From: a virus
Taxonomy: Duplodnaviria; Caudoviricetes
IMG/VR virus record: IMGVR_UViG_3300027772_001925
Span: 1 to 41,831 of that record
Length of the DNA: 41,831 nt
Strand: one strand, 5' to 3'
How positions within the stretch are numbered: the first letter of the stretch is position 1; every line of letters starts with the position of its first letter. The notes under the pieces are model-generated. The model worked only from the letters and a program-made list of their open reading frames with translations. It ran no database searches and was not told the origin of the DNA. The position numbers were made by a program, and so were the translations under genes. Positions 34,268 through 41,455 of this stretch are shown one piece after another.

Positions 34268-34276
34268 TAAATTGAA

Positions 34277-34493
34277 TTTGTAAGTTGTTCCACCCACTTA
34301 TTGGAACCATTAGCCTGATTATACTAGTCCGGACAGGAACTTGGTACGCTACTTGGGATACTAGTCCAGCGTATAGACCTTTCTACCTCGGACACTACGT
34401 GCCCGGGCGGGGATCGAACCCGTTTGCCTTCTACTATAAAGTACCTTCGAAGAATACAGTATAGCGTGATTTTTTCTTGCTAGCACTTACAAA
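34277..34493 (-). ncRNA. Unassigned ~217-nt structured RNA with an internal T-arm mimic
   Basis: 9-bp terminal IR, several hairpins, CGGG-TTCGATC-CCCG, duplicated GGACTAGTAT. Confidence 0.6.
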
Positions 34494-34496
34494 AGT

Positions 34497-36601: not shown

Positions 36602-36693
36602 TGGTACCCCCACCGGGACTCGAACCCAGATGAACCAATTATCTGTTGCTTACGGGATATAAATCCGCCGTTTTACCATTAAACTATAGGGGC
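36602..36693 (-). tRNA. tRNA(UAU), Ile-like, with a 22-nt variable region
   Basis: 7/5 acceptor/T arms, loop TTTATAT, A73, CCA. Confidence 0.8.
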
Positions 36694-37071: not shown

Positions 37072-37163
37072 TGGCGGAAAGCAGAGGAGTCGAACCCCAT
37101 CCCGATTAAGAGAACCTGGTTTTCAAGGCCAGTCGCAGGACCAACCCCGCTGCATTACTTTCC
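37072..37163 (-). tRNA. tRNA-Ser(UGA) with an 8/4 fold
   Basis: 8-bp acceptor GGAAAGTA/TGCTTTCC, 4-bp T stem, loop CTTGAAA, G73. Confidence 0.88.
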
Positions 37164-37901: not shown

Positions 37902-37977
37902 TGGTTGCAGAGGCAGGACTCGAACCTGCGATTCTTGGCTTATGAGACCAAGCGGATGACCGCTTCCATACTCTGCG
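37902..37977 (-). tRNA. tRNA-fMet(CAU), initiator type
   Basis: C1xA72 mismatch, loop CTCATAA, CCA. Confidence 0.85.
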
Positions 37978-37985
37978 ATATTTAG

Positions 37986-38385
37986 TGCCAGTATTCTGTT
38001 ACGAGGAACTGGCAAAACCCTAAGCAGCGTTTAGGCTGCTAATGCGTAAACTTGATCGTTTGCGTTTATTTTTGTTTTGTTGCTACGGCTGAGAATCCCC
38101 AACCCTACGGCTTTCACATTGCCGAGTTGTCCACTCTAATACTTTTTGCCCTGTCGAAACCATGGCAGGCCCATCAAAAATACACTGTAAAACTTCTCTA
38201 GCATTAAGAATAACATGTCTCAAGCCTTCGTCTTTGGTTTTATACCAAAGATCTTCCAGCTCTTTTAGATGCTTTTGTTCAAACTCTATGTATTCTTTGC
38301 TAAATTTTTTCATAATATGTTTTTGGTGGACCTGGCGGGACTCGAACCCGCGTCCAAGACACTTTTCTCTTTGCTTCATACAACC
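37986..38385 (-). ncRNA. ssrA: Circularly permuted two-piece tmRNA: acceptor piece 38385-38324, intervening sequence 38323-38173, coding piece 38172-~37986; tag ANDQVYALAA* at 38063-38031
   Basis: GGACGCGGGTTCGAGTCCCGCCAGGTCCACCA precedes GGGCCTG..TTCGAC; G3-U70; ATAAAC-GCA resume context; YALAA tag. Confidence 0.92.
38083..38313 (-). CDS. Putative 76-aa ORF starting in the tmRNA intervening sequence
   Basis: ATG 10 nt after CCA; open through the IVS; stop lies in the coding piece; no clear SD. Confidence 0.4.
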   Translation of the reverse strand: MKKFSKEYIEFEQKHLKELEDLWYKTKDEGLRHVILNAREVLQCIFDGPAMVSTGQKVLEWTTRQCESRRVGDSQP

Positions 38386-38480
38386 ATATAGAAGTACCCT
38401 AGTGTTCCTAGGTCAGGAATTCCAGTCCTCGGCTGCATGAGAACAGCCTACATACTACCCTACTCAGTACTTCTATATGG
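38384..38480 (-). ncRNA. Unassigned 97-nt element with a perfect 14-bp terminal stem between tRNA-Trp and tmRNA
   Basis: ccatatagaagtac / gtacttctatatgg; three internal hairpins. Confidence 0.6.
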
Positions 38481-40993: not shown

Positions 40994-41083
40994 TGGTGGA
41001 GCCTGAAGGAATTGAACCTAATTGCCAGCCACCCTACATAATTAAGGCAACGGATTTACAGTCCGCCGTAGGGAACAGGCTCC
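40994..41083 (-). tRNA. tRNA-Tyr(GUA)-like RNA lacking a canonical D arm
   Basis: 8-bp acceptor, GCGGA-CTGTAAA-TCCGT arm, T-loop TTCAATT, A73, CCA; no D hairpin. Confidence 0.8.
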
Positions 41084-41094
41084 GTATATAAGAA

Positions 41095-41176
41095 TCTGAA
41101 GTATACTGCGCCCTTAATTTTAGGTTCGCAATAATTATTGCCAATGGGCTAGGTGGTACGCTTTGTATACTTCAGA
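41095..41176 (-). ncRNA. Unassigned 82-nt element with a perfect 12-bp terminal stem
   Basis: tctgaagtatac / gtatacttcaga; internal GCCC/GGGC and GCAATA/TATTGC. Confidence 0.5.
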
Positions 41177-41180
41177 AAAC

Positions 41181-41455
41181 CATATATTAGTACACTAAGA
41201 ATGCACTAATATATGATAACCATCCCTAAATGGTTTCATATAGTCTTATTACTGAGGGCGACAGCCCCACTGTATCTTAATATCCGAGTACCTTCTCTAC
41301 AGCGGTGAAGGCTCATTTTAGTGACGGAGTTTACATCCGCCTCGACTGAAGTGTGCTGCTAACCACTAGGGAGCGTGGCAACAAGCATAGCGGGACTTAT
41401 TATTCTTTTGTGAAAATGAGCGTCATAGCTATACCATCAGCTTCATATCACTAAA
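41181..41455 (-). ncRNA. Unassigned ~270-nt structured region directly downstream of a promoter
   Basis: No track ORF; GCTCATTTT/AAAATGAGC long-range helix; several GC-rich hairpins; two AU-rich hairpins at 41181..41239. Confidence 0.5.

Follow-up and report, generated by a model that had tools for sequence, protein, structure and literature searches.

Outside mitochondria the cloverleaf is, to our knowledge, treated as universal among tRNAs, and the D-armless tRNAs that we know of are essentially mitochondrial. The D helix of the canonical molecule consists of six layers, four stem pairs and the tertiary pairs U8:A14 and G15:C48. Permuted and split tRNA genes, in which the 3' half lies upstream of the 5' half or the two halves are separate genes, are joined after transcription, and permuted genes exist in algae and archaea. 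Among the closest described systems are the (8/4) tRNA-Ser and tRNA-His, the allo-tRNAs and the selC* tRNA-Cys of Mukai et al., which have a 12-bp 8/4 acceptor/T branch and a long variable region, match the tRNA-Sec model weakly, occur in phages and bacteria, all as in the family described here, and work in Escherichia coli (PMC5389517, in part). Mitochondrial tRNA-Ser(AGY/GCU) likewise lacks a D hairpin between its acceptor and anticodon arms, and viral tRNA-like structures such as BMV TLS-Tyr attain tRNA function, as may our gene, through a pseudoknot and a different strand connectivity (PMC9976931, in part). Finally, phages T5 and T6 also encode a tRNA-Tyr, in their case an anti-defence one, and the variable arm is the target of the host nucleases (PMC11555353, in part; PMC13096335).

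The window, by which we mean the whole stretch of 41,831 nucleotides analyzed here, is a 41.8-kb virus record encoding a family-A polymerase, a primase, a DnaB-like helicase, a split NAD ligase, a D5-like regulator and SbcCD-like genes, a set that we take to resemble that of T5-type phages; none of the 45 ORFs tested is a synthetase gene. A permuted phage tmRNA of the betaproteobacterial type, with the tag ANDQVYALAA, lies at 37940-38438 (minus strand), and its type, together with the freshwater runs, gives a hint as to the host. A cluster of 23 tRNA genes, which also includes this tmRNA, has at its upstream end the gene that concerns us, a pseudoknotted (8/4) tRNA-Tyr(GUA) gene of 90 nt, encoded CCA included (40994-41083, minus strand), so defined from the sequence and from covariation in its family. 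Read from its 5' end, it comprises the 8-bp acceptor 5' strand (41076-41083; both-sided changes are found at all eight pairs), the 5' strand CCCUAC of the pseudoknot helix (41068-41073), the N26 equivalent (41067), which pairing counts and RNAalifold partner with N44 (41049), the first base past the anticodon stem, the anticodon stem-loop (41050-41066, with GUA at 41059-41057), the 5' strand of the variable stem (41046-41049), an unpaired A/U-rich linker (41038-41045; family linkers are ~88% A+T and mostly 6-9 nt), the 3' strand GUAGGG of the pseudoknot helix, within the variable loop (41032-41037), a putative relocated D-loop segment with equivalents of U16, G18, G19, N20 and N20a (41027-41031), the 3' strand of the variable stem (41023-41026), a T arm with a 4-bp stem and a 7-nt loop (41006-41020), and the acceptor 3' strand, discriminator A73 (40997) and CCA (40994-41005). 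Both strands of the pseudoknot helix and of the variable stem are assigned by covariation. We infer that the first pseudoknot strand corresponds to positions 22-25 together with the pair of tertiary layers that lie above, and the second to positions 10-15 moved into the variable loop.

When the sequence was re-read, the layout given in the original prediction was confirmed, with only 9 nt between the acceptor and anticodon arms and hence no D hairpin, CCCUAC complementary to GUAGGG in a 19-nt loop and UGG immediately following. The tyrosine marks (GUA, A73 and G1-C72) and the encoded CCA are all present, as had been claimed, and the gene is the only one for tyrosine in the window: ARAGORN makes 24 calls there, 23 tRNA genes and the permuted tmRNA, none of them Tyr, and passes over the gene itself. 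One refinement is needed, as the acceptor/T branch is 8/4 rather than 7/5, the T stem of the window copy having one U-U. Rfam gave no match to the gene at gathering level, the best score, 23.5 bits, being to tRNA-Sec, where the cut-off is 47 bits. Two close relatives have a canonical Arg-UCU gene ~1 kb further upstream and no Tyr gene within 3 kb. A weak candidate sigma-70-like promoter lies 34 nt upstream of the window gene (41117-41144, minus strand), in a search that found 5 sites where 3.5 were expected.

Several other features of the window deserve mention in their own right. At 37072-37163 (minus strand) a gene similar to tRNA-Ser(UGA), its branch 8/4 and its discriminator G73, likewise escapes ARAGORN and, at gathering level, Rfam; it fits the (8/4) tRNA-Ser of Mukai et al. 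(2017) and has homologs of 75-91% identity at L454, L435, L484, L011 and L046. A 92-nt tRNA (36602-36693, minus strand), whose anticodon is UAU and whose variable region is long, is tentatively Ile on the ARAGORN call, and similar long UAU genes are present at L014 and L026. Between tRNA-Cys and tRNA-Asp, ~225 nt (34270-34495, minus strand) with a hairpin resembling a T loop and no Rfam match are 72-86% conserved in other phage tRNA clusters (L014, L020, L026, L030, L035 and L052) and are likely to represent an uncatalogued structured RNA. Upstream of the Tyr gene, the stretch 41150-41430 (minus strand) holds no ORFs and many hairpins and is kept at L013 and L041; one RNA run yielded 41276-41371 as a 96-nt contig of its own, about twice as deep as its neighborhood.

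Parts of the gene region occur in 20 RNA runs from 17 studies. Contigs assembled from three of four runs, each from a separate study, span the Tyr gene without a single difference inside it (run X8 gave no coverage of the gene), although such contigs are uninformative on strand, ends and charging and may stem from DNA carry-over. Upstream of the gene, one RNA contig ends at 41119 and two reach 41138 and 41146.

The gene belongs to a large family. A first viral pattern derived from the window gene yielded 52 loci, all of which keep its layout. A second pattern, drawn from the 3' half only, gave at least 120 viral loci from 26 of the 64 parts of the collection, and a scan of 12 of 64 GTDB parts and one of 63 of 64 metagenome parts again gave at least 120 loci each. 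Among the matches listed, the structure filter passed 93 of 120 viral, 22 of 120 GTDB and 11 metagenome loci, and 27, 98 and 109 of 120, respectively, failed it. The GTDB loci that passed (at least 22) are mostly from Planctomycetota, with some from Alphaproteobacteria. Scans for other anticodons produced rewired Arg, Cys, Trp and UAU members. The family has at least 252 distinct genes (179 GUA, 63 UCU, 3 CCU, 1 ACG, 4 UAU, 1 GCA and 1 CCA), two rows being left out of this count (L556, a canonical Tyr gene, and L465, a genuine member with a G37 loop), and the metagenome scan added at least eight distinct GCA genes and one UCG gene. In all 252 the acceptor and anticodon arms are 7-10 nt apart. 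The RNA measures 81-95 nt, and an encoded CCA is present in 133 of 181 GUA rows and in 52 of the 63 UCU genes. ARAGORN calls none of the 252, and Rfam has no family for the gene at the 12 loci tested.

Members reside in phages and in bacterial tRNA arrays, and cultured phages of E. coli, Vibrio, Aeromonas and Pseudomonas are among the carriers. Unannotated rewired Arg-UCU genes are found in Escherichia phage Av-05, Salmonella phage Arash, Aeromonas phage AhSzw-1 and many Vibrio and Acinetobacter phages; an Arg-UCU query matched 349 cultured-phage records, 311 of them over at least 80% of its length, many being near-identical. Pseudomonas phages Lyrsu01-03 carry an unannotated rewired Tyr gene. 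In one 543-kb phage contig, a canonical tRNA-Trp(CCA) is followed immediately by a rewired Trp(CCA) gene (L385:289-454, minus strand). The limits of the family were also probed. No amber or ochre version came through the structure filter, the scan aimed at them matching mostly Arg-UCU genes by a one-base shift of the pattern; no G37-type isotype (Leu, Pro or His) was recovered, the 3 of 61 loci that passed being two GUA and one UAU; and BLAST against plasmids gave short T-arm matches only. The T5 stable RNAs (RNA1, 2, 3, I, III, IV and 2H) were considered as members and rejected, as their layout does not fit, and DNAVirus_1423, which is 66 nt long, is represented by five soil sequences and overlaps an ARAGORN Tyr call, is probably not a member (PMC10690425, in part). 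As separate observations, the AhSzw-1 cluster contains a tRNA with a CUA (amber) anticodon (L591:5786-5860, plus strand), and four phage tRNAs with UGU anticodons (L791, L804, L805 and L806) are labeled Thr by ARAGORN, yet are 83-93 nt long with a long variable arm.

The proposal that this is a topologically rewired, pseudoknotted tRNA has held up well, as both of the crossing helices are supported by covariation, and among homologs the CCCTAC/GTAGGG helix covaries as strongly as the acceptor stem. In a test anchored solely on the moved GG, all six positions of this helix pair in 182 of the 192 genes of the 9-nt-gap class (shuffled mean 40, maximum 55), the outermost G being fixed by the search patterns; for the subset first found with scans blind to the 5' half the figure is 71 of 80 (shuffled mean 10.6, maximum 21). 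Sixty-nine distinct pseudoknot helices occur, and the corrected mutual information at the three variable pairs, 1.09-1.17, is within the range of the acceptor stem. In a MAFFT alignment of 62 genes (61 picked for diversity and the window gene), 98.4% of the 372 helix cells pair, against 39-68% in slid registers, with 101 two-sided helix changes against 21.9 in shuffled data. On a tree built without the helix columns, whose 65 columns resolve it poorly and which gives neither origin nor direction, pair 3 shows 49 and 41 single-side changes and 53 joint changes; as the joint count barely exceeds the single-side counts, both sides of the helix change together. RNAalifold chooses the pseudoknot helix unprompted and makes it continuous with the anticodon stem via the 26:44 pair, which is a standard pair in 218 of 237 genes, the 15 of the 252 genes that lack an anchor being excluded from the pair and A20 counts. 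The variable stem pairs in 164 of 168 Tyr genes (80 when shuffled) and 47 of 63 Arg genes (15 when shuffled), and because these two supported helices cross, the structure is a pseudoknot. Compensatory changes are present in every helix of the family, and we consider it virtually certain that the fold is real. The minimum-energy fold of the window sequence by itself is a different structure, and the computed probability of the pseudoknot helix is ~0.25 for the window copy and on average 0.44 in the family, values from a model that cannot score pseudoknots. One prediction, that a longer variable stem should be accompanied by a longer linker, was unsupported (rho -0.27 for Tyr and -0.04 for Arg).

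The acceptor/T branch is paired 8/4 in 242 of the 252 genes, and 7/5 pairing would be possible in 29. A subclass that is 7/5 or compatible with it, mostly from phage contigs of 89-413 kb, retains U8 and A9 and an AGUGG segment resembling A14-G15-U16-G18-G19; it may be an intermediate.

The best evidence regarding function is that the identity marks switch with the anticodon, which favors functional tRNAs. A73 is found in 181 of 181 GUA rows (one being the canonical gene later dropped) and G1-C72 in 170 of them, whereas all nine GCA (Cys) genes have U73 and the single CCA (Trp) gene has G73. In 61 of 63 Arg genes, vs. 14 of 168 Tyr genes, the moved GG is followed directly by A, the anchor rule for the 8-nt-gap class having partly required that A; in the Arg genes for which the rule is blind to it, the A is present in 17 of 19. 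A73 for Tyr, U73 for Cys, G73 for Trp and A20 for Arg are tabulated as determinants, with A20 in the D-loop the main determinant for ArgRS (PMC9976931, in part). Since A20 follows the relocated GG in the Arg genes, and occupies the place of N20, the relocated segment is apparently recognized in the manner of a D-loop. The Arg members are mutually related, with three changes on the tree, so their A20 pattern reflects few independent events, and in the UAU members the Ile marks are inconsistent. The family further retains a 5-bp anticodon stem, a 7-nt loop with U33 and purine 37 (both demanded by the structure filter), the T loop, the 12-bp acceptor branch, the discriminator and CCA.

The genes also fill vacant slots in tRNA sets. 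In 18 of the 19 matching phage records, among 20 searched, the rewired gene is the only Arg-UCU gene found; AhSzw-1 has 34 ARAGORN tRNA calls without UCU or CCU, and its rewired UCU and CCU genes are adjacent. Similarly, 9 of 12 near-complete phage records lack a canonical Tyr gene and have the rewired form only, and planctomycete arrays of ~30 tRNAs have no other Tyr gene within 3 kb on each side (6 kb examined). A canonical tRNA-Tyr accompanies the rewired one in 12 of 36 phage records, one record holds two rewired copies, and the 3 of 121 sampled Planctomycetota genomes with the rewired gene each have a canonical Tyr gene too. As the canonical copy coexists, the rewired gene is often not the sole source of tRNA-Tyr. 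That it might be the main tRNA-Tyr of Planctomycetota was considered and rejected: 114 of 121 genomes match the pattern, nearly all through a canonical arm, and three have the rewired gene, making it accessory in this phylum. In a long tRNA array of this kind in Anabaena, 23 of 26 tRNAs are charged, Tyr not being mentioned in the portion available to us (PMC8421152).

Taken as a whole, these sequence data suggest that the rewired genes most likely do an ordinary tRNA job. That the product is a charged, decoding tRNA with a re-routed backbone is in our estimation quite probable, and the best overall explanation of the window gene, which we consider likely, is a pseudoknotted tRNA that is charged by the host TyrRS and reads UAU and UAC during infection. 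In the structure we envisage, six Watson-Crick pairs would take the place of the 4-bp D stem and the U8:A14 and G15:C48 layers. The strand past the acceptor would act as the 48/21-25 side and run into N26 and the anticodon stem, and the variable-loop strand would act as positions 10-15 and run into U16, G18, G19 and N20. The 6-bp helix would then stack on the anticodon stem through the 26:44 pair and the relocated GG would contact the T loop, with the eighth acceptor pair bringing the backbone to the elbow end of the helix and the A/U-rich linker leading back from the variable stem to position 10. The outcome, judging from the conserved GG, the 26:44 pair and the placement of A20, would be a normal L-shape with altered connectivity that RNase P, EF-Tu and the ribosome could accept. 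The benefit to the phage would be a second tRNA supply once host tRNA is depleted, and the retention of a rewired Tyr gene beside a canonical copy fits such a back-up role.

Why the fold was adopted is the weakest step, and here we offer escape from nucleases that cut the variable arm as a tentative reason. The variable arm is where Septu and retron-Eco7 cleave tRNA-Tyr (PMC13096335), and with this arm as the target, rebuilding the variable region could plausibly let a tRNA-Tyr escape. The link to PtuAB is thus plausible for Tyr and leaves the Arg, Cys, Trp and UAU members unexplained. Purified PtuAB gave no cleavage of tRNA-Tyr in vitro in one study (PMC12819146, in part), and another stresses the amount of tRNA (PMC11555353, in part). 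As the anticodon loops are normal, anticodon nucleases would not be evaded. A core independent of host modifications would be an alternative reason. It is possible, if somewhat speculative, that the family represents a widespread natural class of cloverleaf-free decoding tRNAs, re-tuned for at least four amino acids, whose L-shape has a pseudoknotted core with base pairs in place of the U8:A14 and Levitt contacts, and that phages draw on it for tRNAs resistant to nucleases or independent of modifications, which present annotation overlooks.

The explanation that survives best beside this one shares its functional step and differs only in the reason for the fold: a working tRNA whose rewiring is a neutral isomer, which arose once by internal duplication and deletion and hitch-hiked in mobile arrays with no defense advantage. 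Ordinary slots are filled, T5 having a canonical Arg-UCU gene where AhSzw-1, a member of the T5 family, has the rewired one; several amino acids with no shared known nuclease are affected; and adjacent rewired pairs (L591, L659 and L700) suggest spread driven by duplication. Nevertheless, we think neutrality somewhat doubtful, as only phages and accessory arrays carry the fold and no housekeeping copy was encountered (the three planctomycetes of 121 always have the canonical gene as well), and its retention beside canonical Tyr, in one record as two copies, suggests a role that is not redundant.

A second alternative denies that step, making the product a folded tRNA mimic unused on the ribosome that acts as decoy or sponge toward the host's tRNA nucleases, its synthetases or its tRNA-sensing defenses. 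The coexistence with canonical Tyr genes, in the 12 phage records and the planctomycetes alike, would suit a decoy, as would the stable tRNA-like RNAs without assigned function of phage T5 and the irregular tRNAs of Mukai et al. that were charged but unused, or inactive (PMC5389517, in part). Weighing against it are a discriminator and an A20 that track the anticodon across four amino acids, the position of sole UCU gene in 18 of 19 records, and the U33, purine 37, 5-bp anticodon stem and 12-bp acceptor branch that are retained, and a change of anticodon abolished escape from retron-Eco7 (PMC11555353, in part); we consider this explanation improbable. It is far less probable still that cutting and re-ligation turn the precursor into a canonical cloverleaf in the manner of permuted or split tRNA genes. 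Every canonical part is present in a different order, as this would require, but the native 5' and 3' ends are already in place, moving an internal segment would cost three cuts and as many joins, the 6-bp helix together with the 8/4 branch suits the rewired connectivity and not a restored cloverleaf, and, as a weak point, no such joint appears among the RNA contigs listed. A decayed pseudogene or an assembly artefact, the outcomes that the original prediction named against itself and to which the lack of ARAGORN and Rfam calls might point, can be dismissed, being refuted by covariation across at least 252 distinct genes and by the identical gene in independent RNA-library contigs and members in cultured phage genomes.

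If the preferred reading is correct and the rewired tRNA is charged and decodes, then synthetases, RNase P, EF-Tu and the ribosome would read shape rather than connectivity, and the movement of A20 along with the D-loop is a natural experiment on this distinction. There are also practical consequences for annotation, as hundreds of cultured phage records (311) carry an unannotated rewired Arg-UCU gene and tRNA arrays believed to be without Tyr do have one. The family additionally offers a testable reason for phages to carry their own tRNAs and a possible new scaffold for suppressor or orthogonal tRNAs.

We found no description of this fold in the literature covered, which lay largely outside subscription journals; an unnamed model of it may be among the 10,006 candidates of PMC10690425. 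The 8/4 tRNAs of Mukai et al. keep a Sec-like D stem-loop and the G73/U73 of serine identity, whereas the window gene has no D hairpin and has A73; in the supplement table of that study all 12 rows with a GUA loop have a D hairpin and 11 of the 12 have G73, and the word pseudoknot is absent from its main text and supplement (PMC5389517, in the parts available). The mitochondrial D-armless form loses the arm and needs adapted partners, unlike the rewired family, which keeps a D helix and GG elsewhere in the chain (PMC9976931, in part); compared with organellar D-armless tRNAs, moreover, the rewired gene lies in a phage genome and its D helix is re-formed with covariation. Viral tRNA-like structures are the 3' ends of RNA-virus genomes with a pseudoknot in the acceptor arm, and the rewired tRNA is a free-standing gene in a DNA cluster with the pseudoknot in its core (PMC9976931, in part). 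The T5 tRNA-Tyr has the canonical cloverleaf, and the tRNA region of T5 yielded no rewired gene. Unlike permuted and split genes, the rewired gene is one gene with its native ends in order. With the canonical class II tRNA-Tyr (RF00005) it shares GUA, A73, mostly G1-C72, a variable stem, the T loop and CCA, and its variable stem opens with a UG-C-type motif, as does that of the canonical planctomycete tRNA-Tyr. It differs from RF00005 in having no D hairpin, a 9-nt gap, positions 10-20 placed 3' of the anticodon arm and an 8/4 rather than 7/5 branch, and U8:A14 and G15:C48 appear to be replaced by Watson-Crick pairs. It fits none of the structural classes tested and is a new structural class of tRNA gene.
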